Shown here piece by piece: positions 14,777-29,238 of a DNA stretch of 64,000 nucleotides. The notes beneath the pieces were generated by a model. That model worked only from the letters and a program-made list of their open reading frames with translations, was not told the origin of the DNA and ran no database searches. Every line of letters begins with the position of its first letter. Position 1 is the first letter of the stretch. This DNA comes from a virus. The position numbers and the translations under genes are program-made. Location of the stretch: positions 769 to 64,768 of the IMG/VR virus record IMGVR_UViG_3300033489_000009. One strand, written 5' to 3'.

Positions 14777-15532
14777 TCAGGCGGGCCGGTCTCGGGAGCG
14801 GGCGGCGGCGTATCGGGTTCGGAGTTCGCCGGGGCCGACCCGCTGCTCGCCGTCCGCAGACGGATCGGGGGCGGCGGTGGGCCAGAACGCGGGCTGGGTT
14901 GCGACCGGCCGCGCAGCGGCCTGGTCAGGTGGCGGAGAAGGATCCGGCCTGGAGGCTGTGGATGACGCAGGTGACGTACTCACCTGAGGTGATTGGTCTT
15001 GTGTGGTGGGAGTTCTGTTGGAGTAGTTCTTTAGCCCCCCATCCCGTGGGGGGCTAAGCCCCCCATCTGGTGACGGGCTGCGCCCCCCGTTGAGTGGGGG
15101 GCAACTTTCTGCGGTGTCACCCGGTTGCCCCCGACCGGATGGGGGGCAACTCCCGTTATCCACAACCTGTTGCCCACCAACAGACGGGGGGCAACTCCCC
15201 TCCTCGGAATCCGGGTTGCCCCCGACCGGATGGGGGGCAACTCCCGCGAAGAGCCTCAGCCGGTACTCCGCGTTCCGACCGTTCCCGGCACGCCGCTTCA
15301 CGACGATCGCGCCAGACCGCACCAGATGGCCGACCGCGTTCTCGACACGCCTGAACCCGGGCTCGGTATGCGGGGCGCCCAGCACGTCGGCCAGTGCTTC
15401 CCGGCCGCCGTAGTAGACCAGCTCCGGGTCGTCGTCGCGGCAGAGGTTCGCCATGAAGGCGAGCAGACGCCAGGACCGGTCAGGCAACTGTGCCCAGCGA
15501 GCGCATACGGCAGCCACGTTGGCCCTTCCCAT
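14777..15532 (-). CDS. Replication initiator (N-terminal winged HTH, internal iteron repeats)
   Basis: RLLAFMA...YYGGREALAD.LG...VENAVGHLVRSGAIVV...G..AEYRL; repeat region encodes SCPP units. Confidence 0.75.
   Translation of the reverse strand: MGRANVAAVCARWAQLPDRSWRLLAFMANLCRDDDPELVYYGGREALADVLGAPHTEPGFRRVENAVGHLVRSGAIVVKRRAGNGRNAEYRLRLFAGVAPHPVGGNPDSEEGSCPPSVGGQQVVDNGSCPPSGRGQPGDTAESCPPLNGGRSPSPDGGLSPPRDGGLKNYSNRTPTTQDQSPQVSTSPASSTASRPDPSPPPDQAAARPVATQPAFWPTAAPDPSADGEQRVGPGELRTRYAAARSRDRPA
15033..15245. repeat. Putative replication origin: palindromic iterons with a DnaA box
   Basis: GGGGGGCAACT at 15096, 15141, 15186 and 15232 (45-46 bp period); identical 32-mer GGTTGCCCCCGACCGGATGGGGGGCAACTCCC at 15123 and 15214; TTATCCACA at 15156-15164. 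Confidence 0.8.
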
Positions 15533-23279: not shown

Positions 23280-23924
23280 ATGCCCAGCCGCGAGCGTGGA
23301 GTGACCCGCCCTGGTGAGCCTGCACGAATGCCGGCCGCCGGGCGGGTCTGCGGTCAGGATCGGGGTCCCGCATCCTGTGCGGGACCGGTCTGGGCCCGCG
23401 GCTTGTGCCGCCGCCATTACCGGCAGCAGGCCCGCGGCGGCGTGGTCGACGCGGGCGAGCGGGCGGTCGGGGCGCCGTCCGGACATGGCCAGTGGGGGAT
23501 CGTCGACGTCGACGAGGGTGACGGCGGGCGTCTGGTCTGCCACGACTGTGGCCGAACCTTCATTGCACTTGCTGTCCACATCGGGATGGTTCATGACGAC
23601 GTCCACCCCGGCGGGGTCCGTGAGTACAGGCTCCGGCACGGACTCCCGATGAGCGTGTCGCTCATCGCCCGGGATCTGGCCGCGAGGCTGGCTGAGGCGG
23701 CCCGCCCCGCGGCCAGCCGCCTGGCCGCGGTCAGGTCCCCGGACACCCTCGGCGCCCCGCAGGAAATGGTCACGCGTGGACTACGGCTGTCCCGGAGGGT
23801 GGGGCGTCCTCGACCGGATCGGTATCCCGCGATGCCACGAATTGGACCGGAAGCCCTGCGGCCGGTCCCGGACGGCGGTCCCGTCACGCTCCATCCGCGC
23901 GAGTCCCCCGACCACGTCTACTAG
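23280..23924 (+). CDS. MucR/Ros-like zinc-finger regulator
   Basis: N-terminal C..C..ARGLC..HY finger; LVCHDCGRTF..L..HI...H....VREYRLRHGLP..VSL. Confidence 0.7.
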   Translation: MPSRERGVTRPGEPARMPAAGRVCGQDRGPASCAGPVWARGLCRRHYRQQARGGVVDAGERAVGAPSGHGQWGIVDVDEGDGGRLVCHDCGRTFIALAVHIGMVHDDVHPGGVREYRLRHGLPMSVSLIARDLAARLAEAARPAASRLAAVRSPDTLGAPQEMVTRGLRLSRRVGRPRPDRYPAMPRIGPEALRPVPDGGPVTLHPRESPDHVY

Positions 23925-24026
23925 CGAGGCGCCGATTGCGTTTGCGGCGACTGATGCTCCCGTGGACCGCCTCCGATCGGCCCGCGCCGGCAGCCATTCC
24001 CAGATCCTCGCCTCCAGGTCATCCAT
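23781..24026 (-). CDS. Small winged-HTH-like protein, last gene of the Cas operon
   Basis: GGAGG RBS; MDDLEARIWEWL...ANAIGASLVDVVGGLARMERDGTAV...WHRG. Confidence 0.55.
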   Translation of the reverse strand: MDDLEARIWEWLPARADRRRSTGASVAANAIGASLVDVVGGLARMERDGTAVRDRPQGFRSNSWHRGIPIRSRTPHPPGQP

Positions 24027-24031
24027 GGCGT

Positions 24032-25045
24032 CTACCTCCAATCCCCTCGATCGTCGACCCGGACGGATGATGTCGCGGCACGCCGGGACCCCTTCACGAA
24101 TATCAGCGTGTGCTGGTGGCCTCGGCCGAGGCTCCGGCCGGTGCGCATCGCGTGATAGCCGCGCATCGCAGACGTCCCGCACGGTGGGATCAGGACCGCT
24201 GCCGACACCAGATGAAGCCCGGCATCCTCGAATGCGCGGATCGCCATGCCACGCAGATCGATCAGACGCCCATCCCGGGCCCGCACGTCTCCGATGACGA
24301 GGCCCGCGAACCTGTCGGCGCGCAGAGCGCACGCAGCGCCGTCGACGATCCGTCTCAGTGCTCGCTCATACTGATCCACGGTCATGGTCGACAGGTCGGC
24401 CGGATCGTCCGAGTACCTCTCCGTCCAGAGGTAGGGGGGGCATGTCCACACGAAGTCGACGCTGCCCGGATCCAGGGAATCGACCCACCGCGCTGCGTCG
24501 GCGTGCGCCCACTCCGCGGATGTCAGCGAGGGGATCCCTCGCATCGCCAGCTCGGCGCAATGGGCGCGGTTGGCCTCGACCTGGGCTGCCGAAAGATCAC
24601 ACCCGATGTACCGGCGGCCGATGACCGCGGCGACGACTCCCCTGGTGGGGCCCCCGGCGAACGGGTCCAGGATCAGCCACCCCGGCGCCGTCCACCACCG
24701 ATACGCCAGCTCGCACAAGACGGGATCGAATTGGCTGGTCCCGGTGCCGAACGCTCCGCCACCAGCCATGGAAGCCGACTGGCGGTACTGATCGGCCTCG
24801 AACTCGGCGGCCGTCAGATCCCTCCCTGCGGCATCCTTAGCCGCCTGAAACTGCTGGTAATAGCTCGGGTCACGGCTAGTCGCGGTCGACAGCAGGAGAC
24901 GCCCCGGTCGCCCGACACTCGGATCGAGCCCGATGGCAAGCCACTCCTTCCGGCGCGCCTGCCACTTCCCGCGCCGCTGATCGAGCAGGTCGAACGGCGG
25001 CAGGCCGGACAGCCGATCAGTGGCCGAAGGGATCGCAGCGCTCAC
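24032..25045 (-). CDS. SAM-dependent amino-methyltransferase (probably DNA m6A/m4C)
   Basis: TSQFDPVLCE..YRWW, ILDPFAGGPTRG, YIGCDLS and WTCPPY...Y motifs. Confidence 0.85.
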   Translation of the reverse strand: MSAAIPSATDRLSGLPPFDLLDQRRGKWQARRKEWLAIGLDPSVGRPGRLLLSTATSRDPSYYQQFQAAKDAAGRDLTAAEFEADQYRQSASMAGGGAFGTGTSQFDPVLCELAYRWWTAPGWLILDPFAGGPTRGVVAAVIGRRYIGCDLSAAQVEANRAHCAELAMRGIPSLTSAEWAHADAARWVDSLDPGSVDFVWTCPPYLWTERYSDDPADLSTMTVDQYERALRRIVDGAACALRADRFAGLVIGDVRARDGRLIDLRGMAIRAFEDAGLHLVSAAVLIPPCGTSAMRGYHAMRTGRSLGRGHQHTLIFVKGSRRAATSSVRVDDRGDWR

Positions 25046-25767
25046 CTAGGGGTCCTGTCGAGGCGGTCCCGCACGGAGCGGACCTCCGGGTAGTAGGTGT
25101 CCTCCCAGTCGCCGCGTCCATACTCGGCGCCTCTCGACCCACCCAGAGAGGACACCCGCAGCCGATCTCGAGGTATGACCCCACCGAATGACATTGCATA
25201 GGCGGGATGAAGTGGAAGGTCGTGCAGTGCCGCGTACGCCCACACGTCGGCAGACCTCCACCTGATGATCGGCCTGCATGATGTCGCCGTTACTACCCCG
25301 TGGACCGCAGCTGACATCCCGCGCGCCCGCGACTCGTCGGCCCGGAGCCCGGTGATTCGCCTCGGGCTCTCATGCTCCTCCAGCCACCGGTACGGGTTCG
25401 GGCTGGCGATCCCGTACTCACGGTAGGGGGTTGGCCACCGCGCGAGGTAGGCGTCGGCGACGGACTGGCAGTCCGGGTTGCGTAGCCTGTCCGTCCCTTC
25501 CCTGGCCCCGTATGTGACGTATATCAGCTCTATGTCTAGGTCGCGGGCGAGGTGAGCGACCGTGACCGAGTCGCGACCCCAGGAGACTCCGATGTGACAG
25601 GGACCGGCGGCGGCAAACCCTGCGATGCAGGTATGGGCTGCCTCGGCGAGCCGGTCCAGCCTGCGAGCGATGTGGGACGCCCGGACGGTGGCCGCGTCGT
25701 ATCGGGCCAGCCTGGACCACACGGCCCGGTCGTCGCCGGTGAGCCGCGGCGAGTCGATGAGAGCCAT
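25042..25767 (-). CDS. cysH: CysH-like (PAPS reductase family) protein of type IV-B systems
   Basis: PP-loop SWGRDS, ITGLRADESRAR, RPIIRW..ADVWAY...HDLPLHPAY. Confidence 0.88.
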   Translation of the reverse strand: MALIDSPRLTGDDRAVWSRLARYDAATVRASHIARRLDRLAEAAHTCIAGFAAAGPCHIGVSWGRDSVTVAHLARDLDIELIYVTYGAREGTDRLRNPDCQSVADAYLARWPTPYREYGIASPNPYRWLEEHESPRRITGLRADESRARGMSAAVHGVVTATSCRPIIRWRSADVWAYAALHDLPLHPAYAMSFGGVIPRDRLRVSSLGGSRGAEYGRGDWEDTYYPEVRSVRDRLDRTPR

Positions 25768-26492
25768 CAGACGGCCATCCCAGGGGTGACGGGCATCTTG
25801 CGGGTGCCATGCCAGTAGGGGGCCCTGACTGCGCCCGGGACGCCGCGCCCGACGGGGGCCGGGAAGTCGCGGTTCATCCATGCGTCCCGGTCGGCGGGGC
25901 CACCCTCCTGGACCTCGACCTTGAGGACGCGGCCGTTCCCGTGCCCGGTGACCCGGCCGAGGGCCCGGAGCCTGGTCAGGAGGCTGGCGGTGGCGTCCTG
26001 GTCGCCGAGCGCCCACCACGTGACATGGGTGACGAGACGCCCCGGGTAGGTGATGTTGCGGGCCTTGTGCGCGCCGAGCCCATCATGATGCCGGGCATCG
26101 GTCGTGTATCGGGCGTACTCCTGGGTGGGTGGCTTCTTGCGGATCTCGACGGCGGTGGTCCCGTGCTCGGTAAGGACGGCCCGTGAGCAGCACCAGCCCC
26201 ACACGGTGCCGTCGGCGGCAAGCAGGGCCGGATTAGTGCCGGCCGGTGCGGGTCTGGTCCAGGTGGCCAGCGGGACCCTGAAGTCCGCGCACCGGTCCAC
26301 GGTGAGCGGCGGCAGCACAACCCCGGACTCGCGGGCAGCCAGGTAGGCGCAGTACGCGAGCGGCCCGTCCAGATGCATCGGGTCCGCGACAGTGATCACC
26401 GGGTCGGCGATCGTGGCGACCACCCGGAACGGCCGCCACGCCGGGGACGCCACCGTGTCGGCGACATCCCCGACGCGCACGACCCTGCTCAC
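25767..26492 (-). CDS. csf3: Type IV Cas5-like subunit Csf3
   Basis: HLDGPL, W..S.A, and a C-terminal G-loop LGRVTGHGNGRV...W...R..P...RAPYWH. Confidence 0.85.
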   Translation of the reverse strand: MSRVVRVGDVADTVASPAWRPFRVVATIADPVITVADPMHLDGPLAYCAYLAARESGVVLPPLTVDRCADFRVPLATWTRPAPAGTNPALLAADGTVWGWCCSRAVLTEHGTTAVEIRKKPPTQEYARYTTDARHHDGLGAHKARNITYPGRLVTHVTWWALGDQDATASLLTRLRALGRVTGHGNGRVLKVEVQEGGPADRDAWMNRDFPAPVGRGVPGAVRAPYWHGTRKMPVTPGMAV

Positions 26493-27406
26493 GCCCGGAC
26501 CTGCAGCAGCGCCCGGATCGCGTCAGCGTGACCACTCAGGTGGTCGACGTACCGGGCCGCCGCCGCGGACACGTCGCCGGTGAGCTCGGAGGTGTCGGAG
26601 GACACGACAGCGCACCGGCCGAAACCCTGCGCGCCCCTCGCTCCCAGCCGCCACACGCCGCCCGCAGTGACCCGGGTCAGGGCCGCACACAGGGCGTCGA
26701 CCTCGGCAGGGACCGCCGCGTCGACACCGACCTCGAACGCCCACAGGGACCCCGCCTGGATCACCTGCATGTCGTAGATCATCTGCGTTGATGCGGGAGC
26801 TGCATCCCCGAACATGGCCTCCGCGACCAGCCGGTCCACCGAAGAGCCGGTCACGTCGTGGCGGGTCCCGAACTCTTCCCCCATCCAGTCGACCGCGCGC
26901 ATCCCGGCGGACGGGTCACGCATCACGGTGGCCGGGATCCGCCACTCATTCTCCCGGCAGGCCAGGTGCGCGTTGGATACGCGGAGGCTGCCGCGGACGA
27001 TGTCCGACCCCAGCGAGTAGCCGAGCAGCGGCAGGGACGGCAGGAGCGTGTGCCGCTCCGCCATCGCCCGCAGGTCGGTTTGTGCGCCGGTCTCCGTCAA
27101 TGCCCCACCGGACCACAGGAGGTCGACGATCGCCTTCGGGAGACCGTTGTCGGGGACCTGCAGGGTGTCGACGGTGATCCAGGCGAGGGCATCCCGGATG
27201 GCGTGCCGGATCGAGTTGCCGGACACGAACGGGGTGCGGCGACGCTCCCCGTCCGGGCCGACGGAGTCCTGCATGCGCACCAGGGCGGTGTTACCGGCGG
27301 TGCCTGCGCCGTGGTGGATCGGGTCGAGGGCGCGGAGGGTGACGGGGATGCGGGCCGTGACGGTCCGCTGGTAGGTGCCGGCCCCCGCCTCGATGGTGGC
27401 AGTCAT
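26489..27406 (-). CDS. csf2: Type IV Cas7-like backbone Csf2
   Basis: LDPIHHG..TAGNT..R, PFVSGNSIRH.IR, LWSGGAL, LPLLG, QMIY..Q....G and LGARGAQGFGRC G-loop. Confidence 0.9.
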   Translation of the reverse strand: MTATIEAGAGTYQRTVTARIPVTLRALDPIHHGAGTAGNTALVRMQDSVGPDGERRRTPFVSGNSIRHAIRDALAWITVDTLQVPDNGLPKAIVDLLWSGGALTETGAQTDLRAMAERHTLLPSLPLLGYSLGSDIVRGSLRVSNAHLACRENEWRIPATVMRDPSAGMRAVDWMGEEFGTRHDVTGSSVDRLVAEAMFGDAAPASTQMIYDMQVIQAGSLWAFEVGVDAAVPAEVDALCAALTRVTAGGVWRLGARGAQGFGRCAVVSSDTSELTGDVSAAAARYVDHLSGHADAIRALLQVRA

Positions 27407-27852
27407 CAGAACATGGCTCCTGTGTCGTCGGTGGCTGCGGGCGCTGCGGATGTCTTGGTGGCCTTGTCGGCGCGCTTGTCGGCGCGGCGGAGACGCACCA
27501 TCGCCGCGATGTAGACGGCATCCCTTTCTGCGATCCGGCGCCACCGGGCGAACGTGACCGGGTCGGCCAGTGCGGCCTCGATCCCGGCGACCGTCCGGCC
27601 TGTGTGCTCAGGGAGTGTCGCCACCTGCAGTTTCCCGGACATGACGGTGACCATGTCCCGGATGCTGGTGGCGCGCGCTGCCGCAGCGGTCAATGCCGTG
27701 GTGGCGCGCGGCCACCAGTGGGCGACACCGATCGTCGCGACGTCGGCGGCGCCGAGCATCGCGTCGAGCATGTCCTCGGCGACGACAGCGAGAACGTCGT
27801 CGGGGACGTTGGGTGGGAGCCGGTCAGGCCGCGTAGCGGTCGGCGAGGTCAC
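27406..27852 (-). CDS. cas11: Type IV-B small subunit Cas11
   Basis: 148 aa all-helical protein (HWWPR..TAL..AAARA) between csf1 and csf2, the canonical IV-B position. Confidence 0.7.
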   Translation of the reverse strand: MTSPTATRPDRLPPNVPDDVLAVVAEDMLDAMLGAADVATIGVAHWWPRATTALTAAAARATSIRDMVTVMSGKLQVATLPEHTGRTVAGIEAALADPVTFARWRRIAERDAVYIAAMVRLRRADKRADKATKTSAAPAATDDTGAMF

Positions 27853-28561
27853 GGATGGTCTCCTTCGTGGTCATGTGCAGCGCGAGCTGCAGTAGAGGTG
27901 AGTTGGCGTGTGGTGCGACCGTCGGCGACCAGCGCCGCCATGCGGTCAGCCCGTCCCTGGTCAGGGCCGGGACGGTTGGGGTGACGGCGTGGATACTGTC
28001 CGGGTTGTGTCCAGCGAGGCGTAGCGCGGCGCATGCCCCGATCAGAGCCCCGTACTCGGTGGGGGTGGCGTCGACGACGCATCCCTCGATCCGGGCCAGG
28101 ACCAGGGCCGCGCCGGGCGCGTTGACGGGCGTGTACGGGAGGAGGTGTTTCTGGCCTGAGACGGCGATCGTGACCGCCCATACGTCGTCCGGGGGGTCCG
28201 TGAGTGCGGCGATGATCGCGGACTGGTCCTTGCGGTTGCAGAGGTGTAGCCGGCCATCGGATGGGTATGGGGCGGATGGTGCCCCCGTCGGGAGGATGGT
28301 GGCGGCGGTGGTGAGGATCGACCACATCCGTAGTGTCTGCGGCGGTTTCCCGGCGAGGGCCCACGCGCACGGCTCGCACACCGTCGACAGGTCCGGGCGG
28401 GCCGCGGTGAGGATGTCGAAGTTCTTGCCGAGCGCATCCCGCGCCCGTAGGTGCCGGTGGTGGGTCACCCCGCACACCACGCACCCGGCGTCGGCGGCGA
28501 TCGCCTTCGGGTGGGATGGCCCACCGGCTGCGTCCCACGCCATCCGGACCGCCGTCAGCAT
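27824..28561 (-). CDS. csf1: Type IV large subunit Csf1 (Cas8-like)
   Basis: CVVCG...LG.NF...CEPCAWAL.GKPP.TLRMWS and W.V.IA.SGQKH.LPY..VN motifs. Confidence 0.85.
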   Translation of the reverse strand: MLTAVRMAWDAAGGPSHPKAIAADAGCVVCGVTHHRHLRARDALGKNFDILTAARPDLSTVCEPCAWALAGKPPQTLRMWSILTTAATILPTGAPSAPYPSDGRLHLCNRKDQSAIIAALTDPPDDVWAVTIAVSGQKHLLPYTPVNAPGAALVLARIEGCVVDATPTEYGALIGACAALRLAGHNPDSIHAVTPTVPALTRDGLTAWRRWSPTVAPHANSPLLQLALHMTTKETIRDLADRYAA

Positions 28562-29238
28562 GCCGGCACCTGGGCTGGCGCTGGGCGGGCGAGGATGAGA
28601 CCGCACCCGAAACTCTTGTTCCGGCCTACACCCTCGGCCATGAGCGCGTGCATGGCCGGCTCGTCGCAGACCCGGCCCTCGAATCGCAGCAGTGTGTGAT
28701 TCGAATGCTGGACCCGGCCCTCCTTCACCCTGCGGCCGGTCAGGTGCCATGCCCCGGCCATGGTCACGTCGAGCCCGTCGAGGATCCCCGCGAGCCTGCC
28801 CGCCAGCACCTCCACCATCGCCTCCGGCGGGCGGACCGTATGCCGCCGTTTCTCCGACCGGGCGGAGAGTTTCCCCGGGATCTGCCCTGCCGCGACCAGC
28901 TCGCATTCCCGGACCCACTGACTGTGCGACTGGCCTGACTGGCCTGAGTCCATCACGACGGCCCCCGATATCAGGGCCCCGGCGGTCGGCCACCAGTACG
29001 GGCTGTGGGTGGTGTTGATCGCCCACCCTCGGGGCCAGTCCTCACGGGTGATGGGCCGGTCGTGGCGGACGATCAGGACCCTCGGCTTAGGTATGGCCCA
29101 CAGGACGGGCCGGGGCTGCTCCCCAGCGAGGGCGGCCTGGGTGACCAGGTCGTGGAGATGCTTGACGTCCGCCGACCGGGGATCCCGGTCGGTGATCTGC
29201 ACCGTGGTGAGTATCAGTGGGCTTCCTATCGTGTCCAT
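28555..29238 (-). CDS. cas6e: Cas6 (Cas6e-like) RAMP endoribonuclease
   Basis: N-terminal D..HLH, VLW, and C-terminal RFEGRV.D..AM..LM.EGVGRNKSFGCGLI G-loop. Confidence 0.85.
   Translation of the reverse strand: MDTIGSPLILTTVQITDRDPRSADVKHLHDLVTQAALAGEQPRPVLWAIPKPRVLIVRHDRPITREDWPRGWAINTTHSPYWWPTAGALISGAVVMDSGQSGQSHSQWVRECELVAAGQIPGKLSARSEKRRHTVRPPEAMVEVLAGRLAGILDGLDVTMAGAWHLTGRRVKEGRVQHSNHTLLRFEGRVCDEPAMHALMAEGVGRNKSFGCGLILARPAPAQVPAC

Follow-up and report, generated by a model that had tools for sequence, protein, structure and literature searches.

A ParB-less amino-methyltransferase gene is a recurrent partner of cysH in type IV-B CRISPR-Cas operons of one phage-borne actinobacterial branch

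Introduction

Type IV-B CRISPR-Cas loci of the kind found in Mycobacterium sp. JS623 comprise csf1, cas11, csf2, csf3 and a gene for a CysH-like protein (CasCysH), are carried by mobile elements, and have neither a helicase gene in the operon nor a CRISPR array (PMC7937560, PMC8175902, PMC7038947). CasCysH retains the PP-loop and has neither the C-terminal catalytic cysteine nor the cysteines needed for sulfur chemistry (PMC8175902). Its proposed roles are the AMPylation of targets or the production of a signal, and the function of type IV-B was still described as unclear in a paper dated September 2026 (PMC13676074). Here we describe a virus-borne cassette that shares all of the gene content, carriage and protein features listed above, and whose cysH-like gene overlaps a gene for an amino-methyltransferase. 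The cassette lies in a stretch of 64,000 nucleotides (the window; G+C content 70%) that corresponds to positions 769 to 64,768 of IMG/VR virus record IMGVR_UViG_3300033489_000009, which is 64,944 bases long. Relative to the described type IV-B loci, the window adds a cas6e-like gene, the coupled methyltransferase gene and a small conserved open reading frame (ORF), and it comes from a virus record rather than a plasmid.

Two further groups of described systems are relevant. BREX and Dnd systems combine a PAPS (3′-phosphoadenosine 5′-phosphosulfate)-reductase-family protein (BrxP, DndC) with a DNA mark, such as PglX methylation, and have no dedicated core nuclease; ParB-like partners (DndB) recur in systems of this type (PMC12839542). 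The window cassette resembles them in logic only and is not a homologous system. Among the operon genes scanned, a set that left out the cas11-like ORF and the upstream extension of csf2, there was no Pfam match of the PglZ, BrxC, BrxL or DndA, DndD or DndE type, and the cysteine dyad of DndC is absent. Phages also carry IbrA/IbrB-type pairs, in which a PAPS reductase with DUF3440 is accompanied by a ParB-like protein. Such pairs stand upstream of CasCysH in seven non-actinobacterial loci described below, whereas the window has neither ParB nor DUF3440. Type IV-B with cysH is already well known, and the methyltransferase partnership is the new part. In the searchable literature an "N6-MTase" neighbor appears without further analysis, as a label in one figure legend (10.1101/270033), and we found there no description of a methyltransferase partner of type IV-B, of a ParB-less clade of such enzymes, or of their replacement by one another at the same position.

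Results

The cysH-like gene overlaps a methyltransferase gene

The cysH-like PP-loop gene (241 aa; positions 25042..25767, minus strand) and the ParB-less amino-methyltransferase gene (337 aa; 24032..25045, minus strand) share 4 nt, GTGA, in which the TGA stop codon of the former overlaps the GTG start codon of the latter. The methyltransferase carries DPFAGG at residues 127-132 and TCPPY at residues 201-205. This arrangement, a PP-loop CysH-like gene overlapping by 4 nt a methyltransferase with FAGG then CPPY motifs, had been reported in a preliminary description of this DNA and was confirmed. The ATG of cysH in turn shares 1 nt with the csf3 stop codon (TGATG). Position 25767 is the true cysH start, and the longer 325-aa ORF that reaches 26019 is an upstream extension into csf3. 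A complex prediction for CysH and the methyltransferase returned a score of 0.00 with controls not run, and it is evidence neither for nor against binding.

The methyltransferase belongs to a circularly permuted relative of the beta class

The partner of CysH is an intact class I S-adenosyl-L-methionine-dependent amino-methyltransferase. It matches Pfam N6_N4_Mtase (PF01555) above the cut-off (E=1.1e-6, 29.2 bits), with the match covering motif I only. The catalytic motifs are invariant in the family, and [ST]CPPY is present in all 133 of 133 aligned members. Motif IV therefore has a Cys where beta-class enzymes have D, N or S, and because this Cys is invariant across the family we regard it as a family signature and not as a sign of decay. 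Both motif I and motif IV of the beta class are present, but the order is not the beta-class order of IV then I, as motif I begins at residue 127 and motif IV at residue 201.

A profile of the family found its best solved-structure relative in TTHA0409 of Thermus thermophilus, a putative beta-class DNA methylase (PDB 2ZIE, E=6.4e-18), with the halves of the two proteins aligned in swapped order; N4-cytosine methyltransferases, CcrM, MboIIA and PvuII matched more weakly. TTHA0409 has the same TSPPY...Y.D.P..L block after motif IV and a DPFAG motif I. It differs in being circularly permuted relative to the family and in having Ser in place of the Cys, and its own substrate assignment is putative. 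From the swapped-order alignment we conclude that circular permutation relates the family to the beta-class amino-methyltransferases.

An AlphaFold 2 (AF2) model of the methyltransferase (predicted local distance difference test score, pLDDT, 89.9) has a helical N-terminal segment of 100 residues. The structures nearest to the model are Trm11 (Z 19.5), TrmN (19.2) and Trm14 (18.9), with other class I methyltransferases at 17.5 or below. These tRNA m2G enzymes rank at the top because the window enzyme has the unpermuted class I topology. For the corresponding reason, namely that its DNA methyltransferase relatives are circularly permuted, a Foldseek search against the PDB gave only generic class I methyltransferases. 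Sequence matches in the direction of Trm11 and TrmN were weak (TIGR01177, E=3.3e-4; aTrm11, 5E71, E=1e-3).

The family has at least 5,000 members, and most of those listed are proteins of 470-530 aa with an N-terminal ParB domain. In deposited phages, the ParB-fused relatives are encoded just upstream of terminase with no cysH nearby, and solitary members without ParB also exist. Described ParB-N6_N4 methyltransferase fusions (PMC12704722), represented by Enterococcus phage phiFL3A gp36 and Mycobacterium phage prophiGD43A-5 gp79, share the methyltransferase module with the window protein (residues 14-326, 34-51% identity), including [ST]CPPY, DPFAGG and the motif order I then IV. In contrast to these fusions, the window enzyme is encoded in a Cas operon beside cysH and not beside terminase, and it has no ParB domain: it gave no match to PF02195 and aligns only from about position 140 of the family profile, in which ParB takes up roughly the first 135 positions.

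Taken on its sequence features, the enzyme is predicted to methylate an exocyclic amine, and DNA is the likely substrate. The assignment to DNA follows from the sequence affinity to DNA methyltransferases, the ParB fusions and the terminase context, and also from the fact that a Dam-class enzyme replaces the methyltransferase in the same slot of other loci.

The pairing with cysH recurs in one actinobacterial subclade

We collected CasCysH loci by using an alignment of CysH proteins, as a search with the single CysH protein found none. The collection comprises 93 loci (13 from genomes and 80 from viral contigs), hereafter given L numbers where needed, which fall into 81 groups at 90% CysH identity with the window counted. 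A methyltransferase of the CPPY family, always lacking ParB, touches cysH in 14 of the 81 groups, and the gene order among these is evenly divided between csf3-cysH-methyltransferase (seven groups) and csf3-methyltransferase-cysH (seven groups). Four further groups have an unrelated D12/Dam-class methyltransferase (PF02086) in the same slot; in three of the four it separates csf3 from cysH, and in the fourth it follows cysH. In the CysH tree, a single actinobacterial subclade with 30 rows contains all 18 methyltransferase-linked groups. The remainder of the flanks, over all loci, contains only about 10 methyltransferase genes of these families, compared with the 18 that touch cysH.

A search seeded with a linked methyltransferase recovered 730 relatives, and the best 120 were nearly all actinobacterial proteins of about 300 aa. 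Four loci sampled from these hits blind to their genomic context (L184-L187) all proved to be cas6e-csf1-cas11-csf2-csf3 operons beside a PAPS_reduct gene, with overlapping methyltransferase and cysH reading frames. The next, more distant group, from Streptomyces, consists of solitary methyltransferase genes beside terminase and has no cysH. The main linked clade is monophyletic (33 rows, support 97/95), and pairwise divergence of the linked methyltransferases is correlated with that of their CysH partners (Mantel rho 0.47, p=0.002). In a sample of 400 further genomes from the phylum to which Phytoactinopolyspora limicola belongs, no member of this clade of type IV-B methyltransferases was found at E<=1e-40.

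The data show a real genetic link between cysH and the methyltransferase gene, of long standing in one clade and seen again in others. We read the methyltransferase as a genuine accessory of the actinobacterial phage-borne branch of type IV-B rather than a chance neighbor. The preliminary description had presented the two genes as a paired modification module. A recurrent pair in type IV-B operons, found in 18 of the 30 actinobacterial loci, is supported; an obligatory two-step modification of one base or backbone position is not, for reasons given under Discussion.

The window copy of the methyltransferase appears to have been recruited separately

With wider sampling, the window methyltransferase and a long-branched copy from locus L083 fall inside the ParB-fused group (support 95/100). 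Constraining the window protein to the linked clade lowers the log-likelihood by 61 units (approximately unbiased (AU) test, p=0.038), a p-value to be read with care because the test was defined after the tree was seen. The window protein shares 45-51% identity with the ParB-fused relatives at the top of its match list (50-54% by other measures) and 33-46% with the linked copies. A common origin of all type IV-B-linked methyltransferases, including that of the window, had been considered when a small sample placed the window protein as sister to the linked clade, and it was dropped after the sampling was widened.

The sister locus L017, whose CysH is 67% identical to that of the window, has no methyltransferase in 13.6 kb, and its cysH is followed directly by a homologue of the 81-aa ORF that stands after the methyltransferase gene in the window. 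The window methyltransferase thus looks separately recruited. On the simplest reading, the window lineage acquired, between cysH and the small ORF, a methyltransferase from the pool of ParB fusions that had lost its ParB domain. If recruitment was indeed separate, at least three methyltransferase lineages would have come to occupy this one position.

CasCysH retains a PP-loop but not the reductase cysteine

The CysH-like protein matches Pfam PAPS_reduct (PF01507) above the cut-off (E=1.4e-8, 35.4 bits) but falls far short of the cut-off of every curated NCBIfam CysH model. Its PP-loop variant SWGRDS spans residues 62-67, of which S62, G64, D66 and S67 are invariant in 32 CysH homologues. Inspection of the sequence found no ECGLH-type catalytic cysteine in the C-terminal tail, and the sole near-invariant cysteine is C164 in the motif TCRPI. 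The AF2 model (pLDDT 93) resembles PAPS reductases, CysD and three PP-loop enzymes of tRNA modification (TtuA, NcsA and TilS) in Foldseek comparisons, with modest template modeling (TM) scores of 0.4-0.55.

In total, 80 CasCysH homologues were found, almost all of them adjoining csf genes; one (P0022) carries at its C-terminus a winged-helix-like extension that resembles the product of the 81-aa ORF. Searched by tblastn with CysH, the phage and plasmid collections yielded no match at 1e-10 and, at 1e-3, distant plasmid copies only. The window protein and the copies encoded by Rhodococcus plasmids share 27-30% identity.

Layout of the type IV-B cassette

Densely packed minus-strand ORFs run from 29238 down to 23781 in the window and form an eight-gene operon in the order cas6e-csf1-cas11-csf2-csf3-cysH-methyltransferase-orf81. 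The cassette is of type IV-B with three extras, namely the cas6e-like gene, the methyltransferase gene and the small ORF. The core genes csf1, cas11, csf2 and csf3 are present in one operon, with csf1 and cas11 assigned by position, and a cysH-like gene adjoins them; the csf gene order is kept in about 70 related loci as well as in L184-L187.

All eight genes are on the minus strand. The first is the cas6e-like gene (227 aa; 28555..29238), which matches Pfam CRISPR_assoc (PF08798) above the cut-off (E=7.5e-9, 36.6 bits) and NCBIfam casE_Cse3 weakly. A Cas6 gene in type IV-B is a rare known exception, with 12 instances (PMC7038947), and a cas6e-like gene heads all five operons examined with gene calls (the window and L184-L187). 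One of these type IV-B operons, L185 from Saccharothrix, has a type I-E cse1 gene at a distance of about 5 kb, which raises the question of host I-E CRISPR RNA (crRNA) use.

The csf1-like gene (27824..28540, start uncertain) is assigned by position and homology. It had no match in the Pfam scan, but tblastn homologues occupy the same place upstream of csf2 in most CasCysH loci, and the gene at the csf1 position in L185 and L187 has a weak or faint precomputed match to the Csf1 family PF27781. The putative cas11-like small subunit gene (148 aa; 27406..27852) is inferred from position and size alone; genes of 119-134 aa lie between csf1 and csf2 in L184-L187. The Cas7-like gene csf2 (26489..27409) matches NCBIfam TIGR03115 (cas7_csf2) below its curated cut-off (E=3.6e-6), and its homologues adjoin csf3 in about 70 loci by tblastn. 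The Cas5-like gene csf3 (25767..26492) matches TIGR03116 (cas5_csf3) at E=6.7e-16 and 58.6 bits, below the 140-bit cut-off, and its homologues in L184-L187 carry PF27782 (Csf3). No helicase family (DinG, RecD) was found in Pfam and NCBIfam scans of six operon ORFs, a set that did not include the cas11-like ORF.

The last operon gene is the 81-aa conserved ORF (23781..24026), recognized by homology to ORFs that touch cysH and not listed in the preliminary description. It starts 5 nt past the methyltransferase stop codon, behind GGAGG. Homologues touch cysH in L007, L017, L024, L025, L029, L035, L073, L184 and L186, either as small ORFs or as C-terminal parts of longer ones, and on either side of cysH. 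Pfam gave sub-threshold winged-helix hints only, and the product is possibly a winged-helix protein.

The G+C content at third codon positions is 0.80 for cysH and the methyltransferase gene, 0.84-0.90 for the csf genes and 0.93 for other genes of the window. A promoter and terminator scan returned one weak promoter-like site and no terminator, and Rfam gave no family for the interval 14.5-30.5 kb. No CRISPR array was found anywhere in the window. The sole short-period repeat of the window lies in an intergenic, G+C-rich cluster of hairpin repeats (15030-15250), in which a 36-nt palindromic unit (GTTGCCCCC...GGGGGCAAC) occurs in three copies (15120-15246) separated by gaps of 9-10 nt, a spacing that is not CRISPR-like. 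PHROG scans of eight large window ORFs, chosen before their frames were checked by third-position G+C content, were uninformative except for one FtsK-like match. A megablast search of the operon against phages gave no match; the window stretch is also present in soil metagenome runs, one of them its possible source, and no RNA sequencing run is listed as containing it.

Other neighbors of cysH

PAPS-reductase-like, ParB and methyltransferase genes recur together in type IV-B neighborhoods. In seven non-actinobacterial loci (L036, L039, L042, L044, L050, L058 and L075), an IbrA-like PAPS reductase gene with DUF3440 and a ParB-like gene (phrog_2159) stand directly upstream of CasCysH, for example at L042:5103-6993, so that these seven cassettes hold two PP-loop enzymes. 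Lone ParB-like ORFs follow cysH in other loci.

Two other arrangements were observed. On the Gloeobacter morelensis plasmid pGMOR1 (L192:10337-12582), a DNA cytosine methyltransferase gene abuts a second PAPS-reductase-family gene, the two sharing an end/start coordinate, 3.7 kb downstream of the type IV-B cysH. In L012 (7680-8393), and also in L032 and L080, cysH is followed by an ORF with a match to a tyrosine-phosphatase family and a weak one to SpoU-type RNA methylases; it represents a different kind of methyltransferase partner in another type IV-B clade.

Discussion

We tentatively favor a reading, itself somewhat short of an even chance, in which the enzyme paired with cysH is a DNA amino-methyltransferase laying a mark that works in parallel with Csf and CysH. 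The methyltransferase would methylate adenine N6 or cytosine N4 in the DNA of the element and its host, and the methyl mark would act beside the Csf-CysH machinery and not downstream of it. The scheme would pair a mark with an effector that is not a nuclease; in BREX and Dnd, likewise, a PAPS-reductase-family or other effector stands beside a methyl or phosphorothioate mark. The Csf complex would present a target, nucleic acid or otherwise, on which CysH performs an ATP-dependent (adenylating) reaction of its own, and the methyl mark might tell the system which DNA to spare or might shield the element's own DNA. The window copy would have been drawn separately from the pool of ParB-methyltransferases into a slot that other methyltransferases fill in other type IV-B lineages. 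We count for this reading the ParB-like and IbrA-like genes that flank cysH in other clades, as these are the usual company of DNA-modification genes.

Several observations weigh against it. No methyltransferase adjoins cysH in 12 of the 30 actinobacterial loci or in nearly all loci of other clades, including the classical plasmid type IV-B locus of Rhodococcus plasmid pRHL3, which indicates that CysH needs no methyltransferase. Conversely, the close relatives of the methyltransferase that are solitary phage genes indicate that the methyltransferase needs no CysH. Any gene is easily added at the 3′ end of an operon, and with so few independent events (about 3 to 5) no meaningful enrichment p-value can be given. 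Finally, the closest structures are tRNA m2G methyltransferases, which makes an RNA substrate possible.

The main competing explanation is that the enzyme is an autonomous orphan methyltransferase of the anti-restriction type, which hitch-hikes in the type IV-B operon without any biochemical link to CysH or Csf. Conflict and anti-defense genes cluster and are co-expressed, and such an enzyme would protect the phage genome from host restriction. Its family is overwhelmingly one of solitary phage genes beside terminase, with solitary members even among the forms without ParB; ParB-methyltransferase fusions are enriched in prophages, where an anti-defense role has been proposed (PMC12704722). The exchange of one methyltransferase family for another in the slot fits an arrangement in which any protective methyltransferase will do, and many type IV-B loci manage with none. 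However, a hitch-hiking gene does not account readily for a position that always adjoins cysH, is often internal between csf3 and cysH, and involves overlapping reading frames. Nor does it explain a dedicated clade of enzymes of about 300 aa that occurs only in type IV-B operons wherever the context was checked and co-diverges with CysH, or the paucity of methyltransferase genes elsewhere in the flanks relative to those that touch cysH. On balance we rate the orphan explanation somewhat below the favored reading.

If the structural ranking is given more weight, the enzyme could instead be an RNA methyltransferase that acts on a base amino group, such as guanine N2, of Csf-bound or cellular RNA, and type IV-B would then be an RNA-modifying machine. 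The Csf complexes of type IV-B do bind RNA (PMC7937560), the enzymes ranked nearest to the model are Trm11, TrmN and Trm14, a weak match to the Trm11-type model TIGR01177 points the same way, and the L012 clade has its phosphatase with a weak SpoU-like ORF after cysH. Yet the high rank of Trm11 is expected from the common unpermuted topology, and sequence profiles favor the beta-class DNA methyltransferases by a wide margin (E=6.4e-18, compared with 1e-3 for aTrm11). No evident THUMP-like domain was seen in the model, in which the N-terminal 100 residues are predicted to be helical, and the relatives of the enzyme are fused to ParB and encoded beside terminase genes. The Dam-class replacement, PF02086, is annotated as a family of N6-adenine-specific DNA methyltransferases, and we know of no RNA substrate for it. 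We therefore regard an RNA target as improbable.

The preliminary description had suggested a two-step base or backbone modification. In a sequential scheme of this kind, CysH would activate (for example, adenylate) a base or backbone position and the methyltransferase would act on the product, or the reverse, to yield a hypermodified nucleotide. Tight translational coupling and recurrent adjacency are what such a scheme would lead one to expect, and PAPS-reductase-family enzymes such as DndC and BrxP do act in DNA modification (PMC8175902, PMC12839542). In contrast, both partners are widely found alone, unrelated methyltransferase families substitute for each other, and the active-site motifs of the methyltransferase are identical to those of its solitary relatives; in view of these three observations, the pair does not look like an obligatory two-step pathway. 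Because the CPPY and D12/Dam families are interchangeable, ordinary base methylation fits better than action on a special product of CysH. To our knowledge, no pathway couples a PP-loop enzyme to an N6/N4 methyltransferase on one nucleotide. Modification of a single position by the two enzymes in turn is accordingly a proposal that we consider very doubtful.

A more ambitious reading, to which we give the least credence of all, would make the Csf ribonucleoprotein (RNP), CysH and the methyltransferase a natural RNP-directed epigenetic writer. The Csf complex would replace ParB as the targeting device, and the DNA-loading ParB domain would be dispensable because the Csf complex would deliver the methyltransferase to its nucleic-acid targets. 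The complex might carry type I-E crRNAs of the host that the Cas6e-like protein of the phage has processed. Were this correct, type IV-B would mark DNA rather than cut or silence it.

In the paper dated September 2026, type IV-B is the only CRISPR-Cas subtype still without a known function (PMC13676074), and the CysH-like protein is seen as the key to it. The occurrence of three methyltransferase lineages, ParB-like genes and IbrA-like genes at the same spot shifts the odds toward a role in marking or modifying nucleic acids. As methylomes can be read by single-molecule real-time (SMRT) or nanopore sequencing, the methyltransferase partnership would make the function of type IV-B directly testable, and its value lies mainly in this experimental handle.

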